From Escherichia coli O127:H6 str. E2348/69 (GTDB lineage Bacteria > Pseudomonadota > Gammaproteobacteria > Enterobacterales > Enterobacteriaceae), in NCBI RefSeq assembly GCF_000026545.1, contig NC_011601.1: a stretch of 64,000 bases of DNA; one strand, 5' to 3'. The translations under genes and the position numbers were made by a program. Positions 22,163 through 48,716 of this stretch are shown here, piece after piece; positions within the stretch are counted from its first letter, which is position 1; each line of letters begins with the position of its first letter. The notes below the pieces were generated by a model. It was not told where the DNA came from. It worked only from the letters and a program-made list of their open reading frames with translations, and ran no database searches.

Positions 22163-24958
<2,796 letters not shown>

Positions 24959-44163: not shown

Positions 44164-44811
44164 ATGTCCGATAACGCTCAACTTACCGGTCTGTGCGACC
44201 GTTTTCGTGGTTTTTATCCTGTTGTGATCGATGTTGAAACAGCCGGATTTAACGCCAAAACCGATGCGCTGCTTGAGATTGCCGCCATCACCCTGAAAAT
44301 GGATGAACAAGGCTGGCTGATGCCGGACACCACATTACATTTCCACGTCGAACCATTTGTCGGCGCAAATTTGCAACCAGAGGCCCTTGCCTTCAACGGT
44401 ATTGACCCGAACGATCCCGATCGCGGCGCGGTCAGCGAATACGAGGCGCTGCACGAAATTTTTAAAGTTGTACGTAAAGGTATTAAAGCGAGCGGCTGTA
44501 ACCGCGCCATTATGGTGGCGCACAACGCCAATTTCGATCACAGCTTTATGATGGCCGCCGCAGAACGCGCCTCACTGAAACGTAACCCGTTCCACCCTTT
44601 CGCCACTTTTGACACTGCGGCACTGGCCGGGCTGGCACTCGGACAAACCGTATTGTCAAAGGCTTGCCAGACAGCTGGCATGGACTTCGACAGCACCCAG
44701 GCGCACTCCGCGCTGTACGACACCGAACGCACTGCTGTGCTGTTTTGTGAAATCGTCAACCGCTGGAAACGTCTGGGAGGCTGGCCACTACCTGCCGCCG
44801 CAGAGGTGTAA
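44164..44811 (+). CDS. rnt: ribonuclease T
   Basis: 215-aa ORF, DEDDh exonuclease fold. Confidence 0.95.
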
Positions 44812-44903
44812 TCGAGTCGATGCCTGATGACATGCAATGATTCAGGCATCTATAGTGAGGCTATTCCACGCATCATGCATGATATTCACGGGGAATAGCG
44901 TTA

Positions 44904-45132
44904 ATGGCAAATAATCCAAACCCTTCATCGCCCCTGCCGGACGTGTTTTCACCGGCGACCCGCGACTGGTTTCTTCGCGCCTTTAAACAGCCGACAGCTG
45001 TCCAGTCGCGAACCACGGCTGCGCTTTACGCTAACAGAAGTGAATGACCTACCGGTCCGGCAAACGCCGATGTTTACGCGGTTACGTGAGGCGGGATTTT
45101 CAAGTTCGCCACAAGGGCTGGATTGGGGATAG
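44904..45132 (+). pseudogene. lhr: remnant of ATP-dependent helicase Lhr: 5' 102 bp and 3' ~127 bp joined out of frame
   Basis: ATG at 44904 encodes MANNPNPSSPLPDVFSPATRDWFLRAFKQPTAVQ, the Lhr N-terminus as I recall it, then stops after 47 codons; the +1 frame gives a C-terminus-like ...VRQTPMFTRLREAGFSSSPQGLDWG* ending at 45132. Confidence 0.7.
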
Positions 45133-45140
45133 AGAAAGGA

Positions 45141-45167
45141 CTGACGGATGCCCGTTCGCATCCGTCA
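45141..45167. terminator. bidirectional hairpin between the lhr remnant and grxD
   Basis: ctgacggatg ... catccgtcag inverted repeat. Confidence 0.5.
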
Positions 45168-45182
45168 GTATTGCAGGACGGA

Positions 45183-45530
45183 TTATTCCGCGTCCGGCTC
45201 TTCAGACTTGTATTTAGCGGCAGTTTCTTTGATCAGCTGCTGCAGTTCACCACGCTGATACATTTCGATCACGATATCACAACCGCCCACCAGCTCGCCG
45301 TCAACCCACAGTTGCGGGAAGGTCGGCCAGTTCGCATATTTCGGCAGTTCCGCACGAATGTCCGGATTCTGCAGAATATCAACATAGGCAAAACGTTCGC
45401 CACATGCGGCAAGCGCCTGGACTGCCTGGGCAGAGAAACCGCAGCTCGGCAGTTTCGGTGAACCTTTCATGTACAGCAGGATCGGGTTTTCAGCAATCTG
45501 GCGTTGGATTTTTTCGATAGTGGTGCTCAT
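45183..45530 (-). CDS. grxD: monothiol glutaredoxin Grx4
   Basis: 115 aa, CGFS active-site motif (..PSCGFSAQ..). Confidence 0.96.
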   Translation of the reverse strand: MSTTIEKIQRQIAENPILLYMKGSPKLPSCGFSAQAVQALAACGERFAYVDILQNPDIRAELPKYANWPTFPQLWVDGELVGGCDIVIEMYQRGELQQLIKETAAKYKSEEPDAE

Positions 45531-45864
45531 TGTCTTGCTTCCTCAAACTTCTTTACGGCAGTAATCTGACATTGTAGCGGGTCAGTGCGGCATCGGAAAA
45601 TAACATTTTCATCACGCTTTTGCTATTTTATCCCTTTGCTCTATTTGTTGCATTTCAAATATTCGTTTCTTCCCTGATGCACGGCAAACTGGCGTATTTA
45701 TAACCATTTTTAGCTTTCACTGCTGCATTTTTTTGCGCTCGCCGACGAAACGTATTTTTTAACAATAAAAGCTATTAACTTTCTCTTCTTCTATGCATTA
45801 GAATCATCAAGTTTTGTGAATCAGACGCAGGCATGATAGACCTGCCTTAACAGAGGGACGCTCA

Positions 45865-46692
45865 GTGGCGCGGATAAACCGTATTTCGATCACGCTCTGT
45901 GCTTTACTTTTTACCACCCTGCCTTTAACGCCTATGGCCCATGCTTCAAAGCAAGCCAGGGAGAGTTCTGCTACCACTCATATCACCAAAAAAGCAGATA
46001 AAAAGAAAAGCACGGCAACCACCCAAAAGACCCAGAAAGCCAGCCAGAAAACAGCGAAAAAAGCCGCCAGTAAAAGTACGACCAAAAGCAAAACCGCTTC
46101 TTCCGTTAAAAAATCTTCCATTACCGCTTCTAAAAACGGCAAAACTCGCAGCAAACACGCCGTCAATAAAACGGCCTCAGCCAGCTTTACCGAAAAGTGT
46201 ACCAAACGTAAGGGCTATAAATCGCATTGTGTGAAAGTCAAAAATGCCGCGTCAGGAACCCTTGCCGACGCGCACAAAGCGAAGGTGCAAAAAGCCACAA
46301 AAGTGGCAATGAATAAACTGATGCAGCAAATTGGTAAGCCATATCGTTGGGGTGGCAGCTCACCGCGTACCGGTTTTGATTGCAGCGGTCTGGTTTATTA
46401 CGCTTATAAAGATTTGGTGAAAATTCGTATTCCGCGTACGGCGAATGAAATGTATCACCTGCGCGATGCAGCGCCAATCGAACGTAGTGAACTGAAAAAC
46501 GGCGACCTGGTCTTCTTCCGTACTCAGGGACGCGGTACAGCCGATCATGTCGGCGTGTATGTCGGCAACGGCAAATTTATTCAGTCACCGCGCACGGGCC
46601 AAGAAATTCAAATCACTTCTCTCAGTGAAGACTACTGGCAGCGCCACTATGTTGGCGCTCGCCGGGTAATGACCCCAAAAACACTTCGCTAA
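45865..46692 (+). CDS. mepH: NlpC/P60 peptidoglycan DD-endopeptidase MepH (YdhO)
   Basis: 275 aa: signal peptide, K/T/S-rich low-complexity linker, C-terminal NlpC/P60 domain. Confidence 0.9.
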   Translation: MARINRISITLCALLFTTLPLTPMAHASKQARESSATTHITKKADKKKSTATTQKTQKASQKTAKKAASKSTTKSKTASSVKKSSITASKNGKTRSKHAVNKTASASFTEKCTKRKGYKSHCVKVKNAASGTLADAHKAKVQKATKVAMNKLMQQIGKPYRWGGSSPRTGFDCSGLVYYAYKDLVKIRIPRTANEMYHLRDAAPIERSELKNGDLVFFRTQGRGTADHVGVYVGNGKFIQSPRTGQEIQITSLSEDYWQRHYVGARRVMTPKTLR

Positions 46693-46819
46693 AACTTTAC
46701 CCTGTTGTTACGGCAACAGGGTAAGTTCATCTTTTGTCTCACCTTTTAATTTGCTACCCTATCCATACGCACAATAAGGCTATTGTACGTATGCAAATTA
46801 ATAATAAAGGAGAGTAGCA

Positions 46820-47401
46820 ATGTCATTCGAATTACCTGCACTACCATATGCTAAAGATGCTCTGGCACCGCACATTTCTGCGGAAACCATCGAGTATCAC
46901 TACGGCAAGCATCATCAGACTTATGTCACTAACCTGAACAACCTGATCAAAGGTACCGCGTTTGAAGGTAAATCACTGGAAGAGATTATTCGCAGCTCTG
47001 AAGGTGGCGTATTCAACAACGCAGCTCAGGTCTGGAACCATACTTTCTACTGGAACTGCCTGGCACCGAACGCGGGTGGCGAACCGACTGGAAAAGTCGC
47101 TGAAGCTATCGCCGCATCTTTTGGCAGCTTTGCCGATTTCAAAGCTCAGTTTACTGATGCAGCGATCAAAAACTTTGGTTCTGGCTGGACCTGGCTGGTG
47201 AAAAACAGCGATGGCAAACTGGCTATCGTTTCAACCTCTAACGCGGGTACTCCACTGACCACCGATGCGACTCCGCTGCTGACCGTTGATGTCTGGGAAC
47301 ACGCTTATTACATCGACTATCGCAATGCACGTCCTGGCTATCTGGAGCACTTCTGGGCGCTGGTGAACTGGGAATTCGTAGCGAAAAATCTCGCTGCATA
47401 A
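46820..47401 (+). CDS. sodB: iron superoxide dismutase
   Basis: 193-aa ORF starting [36 protein letters not shown]. Confidence 0.98.
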
Positions 47402-47513
47402 TAACTGATGGCAAATGCAACATTACCTGATGCGCTTCGCGCGCCATGCCAACACGGATGAGGCGTTAACAGCGCATTCGGCAAGATAAATCGCACGTTG
47501 CCAGCAACTGTAA

Positions 47514-47542
47514 CGCAGAAGGTTATCCTTCTGCGTTTTTGT
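47514..47542 (+). terminator. intrinsic terminator of sodB
   Basis: acgcagaagg-ttat-ccttctgcgt hairpin followed by TTTTT. Confidence 0.75.
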
Positions 47543-47546
47543 TTAA

Positions 47547-48716
47547 TTAGCTGTTGGCAACGCAAACTGTTTCAGGTTGTTTTCTGACTGACATAAACAC
47601 CAGCAATAATGCCAGTCCCGCGACAATCGCCCCCATCACCGGCACAAAACTGTATCCCAGCCCAGCGGAAATTACCGCACCACCAGCAGCGGCTCCCAGC
47701 GCATTTCCAAGATTAAAGGCACCAATATTGACTGATGAAGACAGACCTGGCGCTTCACTGGCGACACGCATCACGCGCATCTGTAACGGCGGTACGACCG
47801 CAAAGGTTGCAGCTCCCCACACCACCATGCTAATAGCTGCGCCGAACTCATTGCGGGCCAGGAACGGGATTGCCAGCATAATCACCATCAGCAACAACAA
47901 AAAGCCTTTCAACGTGCCGTTAACTGAACGATCTGCCAGTTTGCCGCCGAGATAGTTACCGATAGAAAATCCGACACCAATCAGCACCAGCATTGCCGTG
48001 ACGAACACCGGCGTTACGTGGGTAATACTTTGCAGTACCGGAGAGATATAGGTGTAGAGGGTAAACATTGCACCAGCCCCCAGTACCGTCGTCAGCAAGG
48101 CTGATAACACCTGCGGACGCATCAATACCGCCAGCTCTTTTTTCACTTCCGGTCGCGCCCCTGCGCCACCTTTAGGTAATGAGAAGAACAGACTTACCAT
48201 TGAAATCACGCCCAGCCCCGCTGTTGCCAGAAATGACATCCGCCAGCCGATGGTTTCGCCCAACCAGGTCGCCGCCGGCACGCCACCGATATTTGCCAGG
48301 GTTAACCCCATAAACATAGTGGCAACTGCGCTGGCTTGTTTATGTTTTGGCACTACGCTTGCGGCCACGACTGAACCCAAACCAAAAAATGCCCCGTGAT
48401 TCAGGCTGGTCAAAATGCGTGAAAGCATCAGGGTCATATAATCCGGCGCGATGGCGGAAAGTACGTTGCCAAGCGTGAAAATCGCCATCAGGAAAATCAA
48501 CGCACTGCGGCGGGCACGATGAGAAAGTAGAAGCGTCATCAGCGGCGCGCCAACCATTACGCCAACTGCATAAGCACTGATTAACATTCCGGCAGCGGGA
48601 ATCGAGACATCCACACCGCGCGCAATGACGGGCAACAAGCCCATTGGCGAGAACTCCGTTGTCCCGATACCAAACGCGCCAATCGCCAGCGCCAGCAACG
48701 GATAGTTAATTTTCAT
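47547..48716 (-). CDS. ydhP: MFS transporter YdhP
   Basis: 389 aa, 12 TM. Confidence 0.9.
   Translation of the reverse strand: MKINYPLLALAIGAFGIGTTEFSPMGLLPVIARGVDVSIPAAGMLISAYAVGVMVGAPLMTLLLSHRARRSALIFLMAIFTLGNVLSAIAPDYMTLMLSRILTSLNHGAFFGLGSVVAASVVPKHKQASAVATMFMGLTLANIGGVPAATWLGETIGWRMSFLATAGLGVISMVSLFFSLPKGGAGARPEVKKELAVLMRPQVLSALLTTVLGAGAMFTLYTYISPVLQSITHVTPVFVTAMLVLIGVGFSIGNYLGGKLADRSVNGTLKGFLLLLMVIMLAIPFLARNEFGAAISMVVWGAATFAVVPPLQMRVMRVASEAPGLSSSVNIGAFNLGNALGAAAGGAVISAGLGYSFVPVMGAIVAGLALLLVFMSVRKQPETVCVANS

Follow-up and report, generated by a model that had tools for sequence, protein, structure and literature searches.

The window, a 64-kb stretch of DNA from Escherichia coli O127:H6 str. 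E2348/69, encodes a MepH protein whose predicted disordered, polycationic linker probably works as a tether through its bulk properties and tolerates indels, with one ancestral 12-nt unit lost in K-12. What a preliminary description had called a linker comprises three parts: a mature N-terminus that is conserved, a disordered core that keeps its charge, and a hairpin with two invariant cysteines. The 271/275-aa difference between the K-12 and window proteins is a common natural length variant in the disordered part; the ancestral MepH survives in about one third of complete E. coli genomes, this EPEC-type sequence among them, and the laboratory K-12 form is derived. Annotations of mepH, of its two protein alleles, and of the locus already exist in thousands of genomes, so the result matters little as a discovery, but it settles a few small facts.

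The mepH locus and the architecture of its product

The mepH ORF spans 828 nt (Table 1). It is 100% identical to the annotated E. coli E2348/69 gene, with no difference anywhere in the 1289-nt region searched, and the product shares 99% protein identity with K-12 MepH. The gene lies between grxD (45183..45530, minus strand) and sodB (46820..47401, plus strand) in the order grxD-mepH-sodB. Near-identity and synteny with grxD and sodB place the ORF in the MepH/YdhO orthologous group, which bears out the assignment made in the preliminary description. The locus is present in 5425 of 5426 E. coli genomes, and the GTG start is kept in 80 of 80 orthologous loci. An Rfam E-value scan of positions 44800-47600 found no structured RNA above threshold; the same scan gave a sub-threshold match to the SodB 5′UTR (31 vs 98 bits) and one chance match to a snoRNA. 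Terminator-like matches on the minus strand within the linker, which are expected because the plus strand is A-rich, did not exceed shuffled sequences in total.

Table 1. Features of the mepH region, with positions in the window
Feature	Position	Strand	Basis or remark
Shine-Dalgarno-like GAGGGA	45853..45858	+	6 nt upstream of GTG start; read from sequence
mepH (ydhO) CDS	45865..46692	+	275 codons plus stop, GTG start; long allele WP_000101209.1
Predicted signal peptide, aa 1-27	45865..45945	+	MARINR, hydrophobic core, A-H-A then S
Overlapping K/P/R-rich ORF, 97 aa	45941..46234	+ (frame +1)	Composition artefact, not a gene
K/S/T/A-rich polycationic segment, aa 28-107	45946..46185	+	Composition, entropy, AF2 disorder prediction
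Minus-strand ORF	45946..46158	-	Within codon-shuffle null
Minus-strand ORF	45978..46205	-	Within codon-shuffle null
12 nt missing in K-12 (CCAGAAAGCCAG, Q57-K-A-S60)	46032..46043	+	DNA alignment
7-nt direct repeat CCAGAAA, two copies bracketing the indel	46032-46038, 46044-46050	+	Sequence, alignments
Conserved basic β-hairpin, aa 108-126 (FTEKCTKRKGYKSHCVKVK)	46186..46242	+	Conservation and AF2 strands
Long N-terminal helix of catalytic module, aa 133-154	46261..46326	+	AF2
NlpC/P60 catalytic domain, aa 157-267	46333..46665	+	Pfam PF00877
Catalytic Cys173 codon	46381-46383	+	In FDCSGL; invariant in 81 orthologs
Catalytic His228 codon	46546-46548	+	In ADHVG; invariant in 81 orthologs
Terminator-like hairpin, 13-bp stem, then T-run	46696..46735	+	Just past mepH stop codon; consensus scan, pattern match

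Sequence features predict a Sec-type, non-lipoprotein signal peptide, and its cleavage site is well conserved (among 81 orthologs A27 never varies and S28 hardly ever). MepH has been classed as a soluble periplasmic protein (PMC7516022). A lipoprotein assignment was rejected: there is no [LVI][ASTVI][GAS]C lipobox, the sole early cysteine, C12 (I-T-L-C), has Leu at -1 and only ∼3 hydrophobic residues ahead of it, and the signal-peptidase-I site (A-H-A then S, aa 25-28) follows C12.

The catalytic domain matches the whole Pfam NLPC_P60 profile (positions 1-105 of 105; E 8.2e-37, 125.8 bits vs a cut-off of 23) and is identical in sequence to that of K-12 MepH. Besides the two catalytic residues in Table 1, Q240 is invariant in the 81 orthologs, at what we take to be the position of the third polar residue, H131 in MepS. 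K-12 MepH is known from the literature (cited in PMC7516022 and PMC11211486) to cleave D-Ala-mDAP cross-links as a DD-endopeptidase. Carried over from this literature, the same activity would make the window protein a periplasmic NlpC/P60 peptidoglycan DD-endopeptidase. The PDB sequence and fold matches of the catalytic domain are MepS and other NlpC/P60 enzymes; neither MepH nor its linker has a solved structure in the PDB, and the relatives there cover essentially the catalytic module alone. MepS (Spr), an E. coli paralog, has the same catalytic fold (best Foldseek matches 8xup, 8xud, and 7v6t, 29-34% identity), and its alignment with the MepH model extends over 141-149 columns, the extended α1 of MepS included. 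We also considered and rejected MepH as a MepS equivalog, since its score of 85.9 bits for NCBIfam NF008096 (bifunctional murein DD-endopeptidase/LD-carboxypeptidase, the name that PDB depositors use for MepS) stays below the cut-off of 186, and it is a paralog. Pfam detected no LysM or other wall-binding domain in MepH.

Ahead of the catalytic module lies a short basic hairpin, for which AF2 places strands at residues 108-113 and 121-126. Across 81 orthologs C112 and C122 are invariant, and conservation reaches 90% or more at K111, R115, K116, G117, and K119. This invariance and the AF2 strand pairing (moderate pLDDT, ∼60–70) suggest that the hairpin is probably stapled by a C112-C122 disulfide in the periplasm. 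The motif C-x(2-4)-RKG-x-K-x(1-3)-C occurs once in 72 and twice in 4 of the 82 orthologous sequences scanned, and the hairpin, as C-x-x-RKG[H/Y]K-x-x-C, is duplicated in the Klebsiella oxytoca group. K-12 MepH (MEPH_ECOLI, WP_000101193.1) shares the locus, signal peptide, Cys hairpin, and catalytic domain of the window protein.

Composition and evolution of the linker

Positions 45940..46180 correspond to aa 26-106 of MepH, and the ∼80-aa K/T/S/A-rich linker noted there in the preliminary description is readily seen (the string it quoted is aa 42-83). The segment consists of 25% K, 18.5% S, 17% A, and 17% T, or 78% for the four together, and its Shannon entropy of 2.98 bits falls below the first percentile (3.04) of all 80-aa windows in long open frames of the 64-kb window. 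The linker has a net charge of +25, and its low-complexity core is only ∼8% hydrophobic. AF2 assigns residues 28-107 a pLDDT of 26-32 and no secondary structure (no DSSP elements), with pLDDT below 50 across residues 10-108; the linker is thus predicted to be an intrinsically disordered, compositionally biased region. In a PDB sequence search no relative covered the linker as a module of its own; almost all matches start at residue 126 or later, and a LytE chain (8i2e_B) starts at 59.

The low complexity is compositional and not repetitive. Tandem Repeats Finder reported no repeat in the linker DNA at a score of at least 30, a direct-repeat search returned just two short direct repeats (chance level), autocorrelation of K/R positions showed no periodicity within the linker, and aligning one half of the linker with the other scored 41 vs 39.7 ± 5.8 in shuffles. 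With all four analyses negative, a tandem or internal repeat array was rejected. The earlier wording ‘K/T/S/A repeats’ therefore holds as a compositional bias but not as repeats, and the region described there as a linker closes with the conserved Cys-Cys hairpin, which is not of low complexity.

Length and sequence vary in the linker while the catalytic part stays constant. In all 81 species-level orthologs the catalytic part is 140 aa long (87% identity), whereas linkers are 85-126 aa long with a median identity of 33%. Every ortholog indel lies within aa 28-135, mostly in the aa 28-107 segment, in line with the earlier remark that such linkers are prone to indels. Despite this variation the linker is lost in none of the 81 species, its lysine content is 15-26%, and its net charge is +21 to +27. 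Because net charge correlates with length (r = 0.63), it may be a constant charge density, and not a constant total charge, that is maintained. Relatives at 57-83% identity in the catalytic part, counting those with a normal signal peptide and extension, carry basic extensions of 50-176 aa with net charges of +12 to +33; a basic extension remains in more distant relatives despite a completely different sequence. In most relatives below ∼50% identity the extension is short, and about half of the ones listed have a net charge no higher than +4.

Within Escherichia, the linker shows 9-13 non-synonymous vs 11-16 synonymous codon changes and the catalytic domain 1-3 vs 31-46. Variable sites in the Escherichia linker number 12, 13, and 33 at codon positions 1, 2, and 3, respectively. 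The first ∼15 mature residues (including S28, R32, H39, and K42) and the Cys hairpin are far better conserved than the low-complexity core.

Three further ORFs overlap the linker in other frames (Table 1). They are composition artefacts, which arise because the encoding DNA (40% A, 14.5% T) is T-poor and stop-poor. With lengths of 70-97 codons and ATG, GTG, or TTG starts they could pass for real genes, but they almost certainly are not. The open run in frame +1 is 95 codons, compared with 92.8 ± 17.7 in codon-shuffled linkers, 60% of which have a run at least as long, and the minus-strand runs likewise match this null (p = 0.1-0.3). Moreover, variation falls on the third positions of mepH codons, the second positions of frame +1, and the records inspected annotate none of the overlapping ORFs. 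The codon-shuffle null and the mepH-frame substitution pattern (12/13/33) agree with the earlier dismissal of the plus-strand K/P-rich ORF as an artefact. Alternative-frame ORFs over the mepH linker should be left unannotated.

A 12-nt length variant within E. coli

The mepH gene of K-12 MG1655 is 816 nt long and encodes 271 aa, the approximate length that the preliminary description had given, and the 4-aa difference lies inside the linker as it suggested. Alignment with K-12 and O157, at both protein and DNA level, shows that the window and K-12 proteins are not identical: they differ by one 4-aa in-frame indel and by the substitutions K54Q and A92G (K and A in K-12, Q and G in the window), and by nothing else. 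The flanking CCAGAAA repeat leaves the register of the indel uncertain by up to 7 nt. Even without Q57-K-A-S60, the K-12 linker has the same net charge of +25.

All three non-coli Escherichia species compared (E. albertii, E. whittamii, and one other) keep the 12 nt, and the Q57-S60 columns are occupied in every other displayed ortholog sequence, from ∼15 genera. Since the outgroups retain these nucleotides, the comparison identifies the window allele as ancestral and the K-12 271-aa form as derived by a 12-nt deletion between the CCAGAAA repeats. The repeat itself suggests that replication slippage or microhomology-mediated deletion probably produced the shorter form; outgroup Escherichia have AAT at codon 57, and the perfect repeat was found in E. 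coli only. The opposite polarity, in which 271 aa is ancestral and the window carries either a derived 12-nt duplication that arose in the B2 lineage or an error of sequencing or assembly, can hardly be credited. The missing unit CCAGAAAGCCAG is identical to CCAGAAAACAGC at 8 of 12 positions and could resemble an imperfect tandem duplication, but an insertion in the window lineage is ruled out by the same outgroup residues, and the long allele occurs in ∼1875 independent complete genomes, among them strains of diverse phylogroups (for example O26, O111, O103, and 042).

Both alleles are common. Junction probes found the long form in 1845 genomes and the short form in 3521, and haplotype probes found ∼1875 and ∼3548, respectively, so that the long allele accounts for ∼35% and the short for ∼65% of 5,424 complete E. 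coli genomes. Both exact proteins also occur in public collections under the name MepH, on at least 1000 contigs each. The same deletion is seen on K-12-like, O157-like, and B2-like (F11, ATCC 11775) backgrounds, whereas in O26-type strains the long form sits on what is otherwise the K-12 background. Of 22 informative SNPs, 14 are incompatible with the indel. We first suspected recurrent independent deletions, but dropped this idea as unproven: 67 of 231 SNP-SNP pairs are incompatible too, and ordinary recombination therefore suffices for the scattered indel. The alleles are scattered over SNP backgrounds in a locus with abundant recombination, and a single origin with recombination cannot be distinguished by these data from several independent deletions. 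Small linker indels, including this one, are probably tolerated and neutral because only composition, charge, and approximate length would be constrained.

Proposed role of the N-terminal region

The literature searched contains no experiment or paper on the function of the MepH N-terminal region. From the comparisons above, we infer that the region is probably a polycationic flexible tether tolerant of indels, which probably acts through bulk properties and not sequence, as a flexible tail of 85-126 aa with a net charge of +21 to +27. Such a tail would give soluble MepH reach and a non-specific electrostatic affinity for anionic sacculus or membrane surfaces, and would terminate in the conserved, probably disulfide-stapled basic hairpin adjoining the catalytic domain. 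For a targeting role the relevant context is that MepH is soluble, while MepS is a lipoprotein and MepM is membrane-anchored, and that re-targeting MepH to a membrane abolished its complementing activity (PMC7516022). Three enzymes, redundantly essential, cleave cross-links; MepH, the sole soluble member of this trio, is regulated by both NlpI-Prc and BipP, and its N-terminal region may bear on how it finds its substrate.

The disordered N-terminus could alternatively be a proteolysis handle that docks the NlpI adaptor or feeds Prc, as the MepS N-terminus does. Prc degrades MepH, partly in an NlpI-dependent manner (PMC8996183; PMC11789061), and the disordered N-terminal segment of MepS binds NlpI and folds upon binding (PMC11211486). 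In structure the MepH model matches MepS chains of NlpI complexes best (8xup and 8xud), and the conserved S28, R32, H39, and K42 together with the Cys hairpin could be short docking motifs. However, the MepS-NlpI contacts are hydrophobic (L24, F31, L34, V35, and V38; PMC11211486), whereas the MepH core is ∼8% hydrophobic and lacks a conserved sequence. Much of MepH proteolysis is also independent of NlpI (PMC11789061), and the MepH and MepS N-termini share no detected sequence similarity, with MepS structures aligning only from MepH residue ∼149 on. We regard a proteolysis handle as possible but unlikely.

A functionless neutral spacer, with a composition set by mutation and slippage of A-rich DNA, would fit the very low sequence conservation, the frequent indels, the common 4-aa length polymorphism inside one species, and a literature in which the search found no known function. 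This reading is nonetheless improbable. All 81 species retain the linker, none with fewer than 85 aa, and although identity is down to 33%, lysine still makes up 15-26% and the net charge does not drop below +21. A basic extension persists in more distant relatives of completely different sequence. The 12/13/33 third-position excess and a non-synonymous/synonymous ratio well under the neutral value show purifying selection in the mepH frame. On a further reading, by analogy with the PBP1 and RsgI tails described below, the tail and stapled hairpin would be a dedicated targeting or sensing module that steers MepH to particular sacculus sites or to a partner such as NlpI, with the 271/275-aa polymorphism tuning activity and not neutral; we find this highly doubtful.

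The bulk-property tether can be set beside several known systems. MepS and MepH are both NlpI-Prc substrates with a disordered segment ahead of the domain. MepS, however, is an outer-membrane lipoprotein whose first ∼36–40 mature residues are disordered and hold the hydrophobic NlpI contacts (PMC11211486; PMC7516022), whereas MepH is soluble and has an ∼80-aa polycationic low-complexity segment and a Cys hairpin. Brunet et al. 2022 (PMC9732909) propose that the disordered extracytoplasmic tails of Bacillus subtilis PBP1 and RsgI owe their action to physical properties and probe gaps in the peptidoglycan mesh. Like the MepH tail, these are extracytoplasmic, disordered, and of low complexity, and they belong to cell-wall enzymes or regulators, but the proteins, organisms, and compositions differ, and mesh-gap sensing by MepH would be an analogy only.

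Gram-positive NlpC/P60 hydrolases such as B. subtilis LytE also have a low-complexity region before the NlpC/P60 domain, in this case Ser/Thr-rich, and the LytE chain 8i2e_B is the only PDB sequence match that reaches into the MepH linker (residues 59-267). The linkers of LytE connect LysM wall-binding domains; MepH differs in having no LysM domain (Pfam) and a strongly basic linker.

The mepH locus and its low-complexity linker

The 45531-46819 locus is present in 5,425 of 5,426 complete E. coli genomes (megablast) and is 100% identical to E2348/69, in which the ORF is annotated as mepH, encoding peptidoglycan DD-endopeptidase MepH (WP_000101209.1). Residues 157–267 form the NlpC/P60 domain (Pfam, E 8e-37). 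An identity as MepS is ruled out: NCBIfam NF008096 (bifunctional murein DD-endopeptidase/LD-carboxypeptidase, the name that PDB depositors use for MepS) scores 85.9 bits, under its 186-bit cut-off, so the ORF encodes the MepH paralog. Annotation exists for the gene, its protein, the two alleles and the locus, all of which are hence already known.

Coordinates of mepH, its neighbours and features within it
Feature	Position	Strand or frame	Remarks
mepH ORF	45865..46692	+	275 codons, GTG start; from ORF list
Shine-Dalgarno-like GAGGGA			6 nt 5′ of the mepH GTG start
grxD	45183..45530	-	flanks mepH
sodB	46820..47401	+	flanks mepH
12-nt indel	46032..46043		window sequence CCAGAAAGCCAG; encodes Q57-K-A-S60
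Overlapping ORF	45941..46234	frame +1	97 aa, K/P/R-rich; ORF list, with two minus-strand ORFs as well

Two minor features flank the gene. In the sodB 5′ UTR, the Rfam SodB_thermometer (RF02775) matches below threshold at 46745-46849 (+) (31.4 bits, gathering score 98, E 0.003). In the grxD-mepH spacer, some K-12-like genomes are annotated with a 50-aa TTG-start ‘hypothetical protein’, WP_001299740.1 (e.g., positions 382-534 of locus L004). Its window counterpart (~45612-45764, minus strand) is frameshifted through a 1-nt intergenic indel near 45681, and the annotation is probably a spurious gene call.

The signal peptide (residues 1–27) ends in A-H-A before S28 and contains no lipobox; MepH is classed as soluble periplasmic (PMC7516022). 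This signal peptide is unusually conserved across genera (mean column conservation 0.84–0.88, with L11, C12, A13, L14 and F16 invariant), and all 80 mepH orthologs start with GTG.

The preliminary description placed a linker of K/T/S/A repeats between the signal peptide and the NlpC/P60 domain, at 45940-46180. These positions encode residues 26–106 (the string quoted there being residues 42–83), which comprise 25% K, 18.5% S, 17% A and 17% T, or 78% together. Their Shannon entropy is 2.98 bits; among all 80-aa windows in long open frames of the 64-kb window, the 1st percentile is higher, at 3.04 bits. A makes up 40% of the coding DNA and T only 14.5%. The segment is real and unusual, and its placement holds, but the region described as a linker has a conserved structured module at its C-terminal end. 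The richness in K, T, S and A also stands; the repeats do not. Tandem Repeats Finder reported none in the segment at a score of at least 30, a direct-repeat search returned two short pairs alone, at chance level, and its K/R positions have no periodicity. Aligning one half with the other scores 41, compared with 39.7 ± 5.8 for shuffled sequences. The segment is a compositional bias rather than a repeat array. A true tandem repeat at 24388-24909 (96-nt protein-coding units, 5.4 copies, 89% match), presumably akin to the variable C-terminal repeat region of RsxC/RnfC, gives the window's open frames of lowest entropy.

The overlapping K/P-rich ORF had been dismissed as an artefact of this composition, and a codon-permutation null agrees. 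The frame +1 run of 95 codons compares with 92.8 ± 17.7 in permuted linkers, 60% of which match or exceed it, and the minus-strand runs are unexceptional (p ~0.1–0.3). Stop codons and their reverse complements need plus-strand T, so long open runs are expected at this T content. Variable linker sites within Escherichia fall 12/13/33 at mepH codon positions 1/2/3, following the mepH frame, which is not what a frame +1 protein would show. The artefact verdict is supported, and the overlapping ORFs are rejected as genes.

The 12-nt indel and its two alleles

K-12 MG1655 mepH is 816 nt and encodes 271 aa (WP_000101193.1, UniProt MEPH_ECOLI), the approximate length given in the preliminary description. 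The pairwise alignment proposed there reveals three differences alone, in protein and DNA: K54Q, A92G and one in-frame 12-nt (4-aa) indel. Its register is ambiguous by 7 nt because copies of CCAGAAA at 46032-38 and 46044-50 bracket it. Linker net charge is +25 in both proteins, since K54Q offsets the extra lysine. The indel itself is most likely neutral: it alters length by 4%, compared with ~40% variation across genera in this region.

A scan of species-representative genomes yielded 80 orthologous loci. The indel site is occupied by NKAS or NNKAS in E. whittamii (276 aa) as well as in E. albertii and one further non-coli Escherichia species (both 275 aa), and residues fill these columns in all other displayed sequences of the ortholog alignment (~15 genera, including Citrobacter and Salmonella). 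Judged from these outgroups, the window has kept the ancestral sequence and the K-12-type allele has lost the 12 nt. Codon 57 is AAT in the outgroups, and the perfect CCAGAAA direct repeat is exclusive to E. coli, which fits a deletion that may have arisen by slippage or microhomology at the repeat.

Both alleles are common. A 52-nt probe for the long (275-aa) junction matched 1,845 genomes and a 40-nt probe for the short (271-aa) junction 3,521, one of which, strain 042, has the long allele and matched via a variant 9-nt repeat. Two ~220-nt haplotype probes assigned ~1,875 genomes (35%) to the long and ~3,548 (65%) to the short allele (n = 5,424); no genome fell under 90% identity, which suggests that this stretch has no further large indels. 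The cluster members read in a public protein collection are 271 or 275 aa, with each exact allele on at least 1000 contigs.

The short allele is found with K-12-like, O157-like and B2-like backgrounds; its B2-like form was counted in 265 genomes, F11 and the type strain ATCC 11775 among them. With a background otherwise the same as that of K-12, the long allele is present in ~1,080 genomes at or near identity, including O26, O111 and O103 STEC. Of 22 informative SNPs, 14 conflict with the indel in the compatibility test. We considered recurrent independent deletion, but it cannot be claimed: 67 of 231 SNP-SNP pairs are incompatible too, so ordinary recombination suffices to explain the scatter.

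Apparently disrupted copies are rare. The annotation of E. coli FCI23 marks its mepH as frameshifted, and 5 nt are missing at the CCAGAAA repeat. Putative disrupted copies occur in E. coli TUM2805 (19% of the query matched) and Citrobacter amalonaticus AUH_CA_2023_1 (truncation at codon 57).

Linker evolution and the Cys hairpin

The expectation that the linker is prone to indels is borne out among 81 species-level orthologs. All indels lie within residues 28–135, a region of 85 to 126 aa, and the part aligned to residues 136–275 is 140 aa in every ortholog. Compared with the window, the linker has a median identity of 33% and the catalytic part 87%. Linker composition is maintained: lysine at 15–26%, K+T+S+A at 55–73% and net charge from +21 to +27, with ~8% hydrophobic residues and ~2% proline in the low-complexity core. 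Within Escherichia, 9–13 non-synonymous versus 11–16 synonymous codon changes in the linker, and 1–3 versus 31–46 in the domain, indicate linker constraint that is relaxed but real. One ortholog lies in a typical Enterobacteriaceae mepH locus on a contig that bears the title Chryseobacterium sp. 18061 (best segment 64% identical to the window protein); its 271-aa product resembles that of ‘Enterobacteriaceae bacterium 89’ in length and N-terminal sequence, and the assembly is probably mislabelled or contaminated.

We also searched 1.84 billion representative proteins with residues 105–275. Those single-domain relatives at 57–83% identity that possess a normal signal peptide and extension have extensions of 50–176 aa with net charges of +12 to +33 and quite different sequence. 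Below ~50% identity extensions are mostly short, and about half among the matches listed have a net charge of at most +4.

An AlphaFold2 model built on an 81-sequence alignment gives residues 10–108 pLDDT < 50 and no secondary structure (ten-residue block means of 26–32 in the linker), followed by a beta-hairpin (strands 108–113 and 121–126), a long helix (133–154) and the NlpC/P60 core. By fold, its best matches in the PDB are MepS chains of the NlpI complexes 8xup and 8xud (E ~5e-9). PDB sequence relatives cover essentially the catalytic module alone, nearly all alignments starting no earlier than residue 126; that of one LytE chain, 8i2e_B, starts at residue 59.

Hairpin residues C112 and C122, together with K42, are invariant in the N-terminal half, and K111, R115, K116, G117 and K119 are at least 90% conserved. 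A C112-C122 disulfide is likely in the oxidising periplasm. The motif C-x(2-4)-RKG-x-K-x(1-3)-C, restricted to the closest relatives in the 1.84-billion-protein search, occurs once in 72 of 82 orthologous sequences (80 loci, the window and K-12) and twice in Klebsiella oxytoca-group sequences (K. grimontii, K. michiganensis and K. oxytoca) and Enterobacter sp. JUb54. The second loop, CVLRKGYKKLC, lies inside the low-complexity linker ~30 residues upstream of the canonical one, which suggests a self-contained module. This structured module, the deleted state of the K-12 form and bias in place of repeats refine a preliminary description that was essentially correct in observation and interpretation. 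Separately, in a 259-aa representative protein (P0004), the ~100 N-terminal residues of RNase T are joined in frame to MepH precisely where the two share a VRKG(H)K motif. The fusion reflects either a deletion across rnt-lhr-grxD-mepH or a chimera created by assembly or gene prediction.

Candidate roles of the cationic tail

This region of MepH forms a strongly cationic tail, predicted to be disordered, on a soluble periplasmic peptidoglycan endopeptidase; the tail is constrained in composition and tolerates indels, and our literature search found no paper examining it. MepS has a lipid anchor and an NlpI-binding segment, and MepM a membrane anchor (PMC7516022; PMC11211486). We tentatively suggest, at a little short of an even chance, that the MepH tail supplies comparable targeting through its bulk physical properties, which would be its reach and a non-specific electrostatic attraction to the anionic surfaces of sacculus or membrane.

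The main rival is that the N-terminal region serves recognition by NlpI or Prc, given that MepH is among the substrates of that system (PMC8996183, PMC11789061) and that MepS binds NlpI through its own disordered N-terminus (PMC11211486). However, the contacts of lipid-anchored MepS with NlpI are hydrophobic, whereas the low-complexity core of soluble MepH is not, and much MepH turnover is NlpI-independent (PMC11789061). Such docking would more plausibly involve the Cys hairpin or the conserved start of the mature protein than the core. That the linker is a functionless spacer is unlikely, because its composition is persistently kept. The tail, with its conserved charge, and the Cys hairpin, with its invariant cysteines, are small candidate leads; their likeness to the extracytoplasmic disordered regions studied in B. 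subtilis (PMC9732909) is one of analogy alone.
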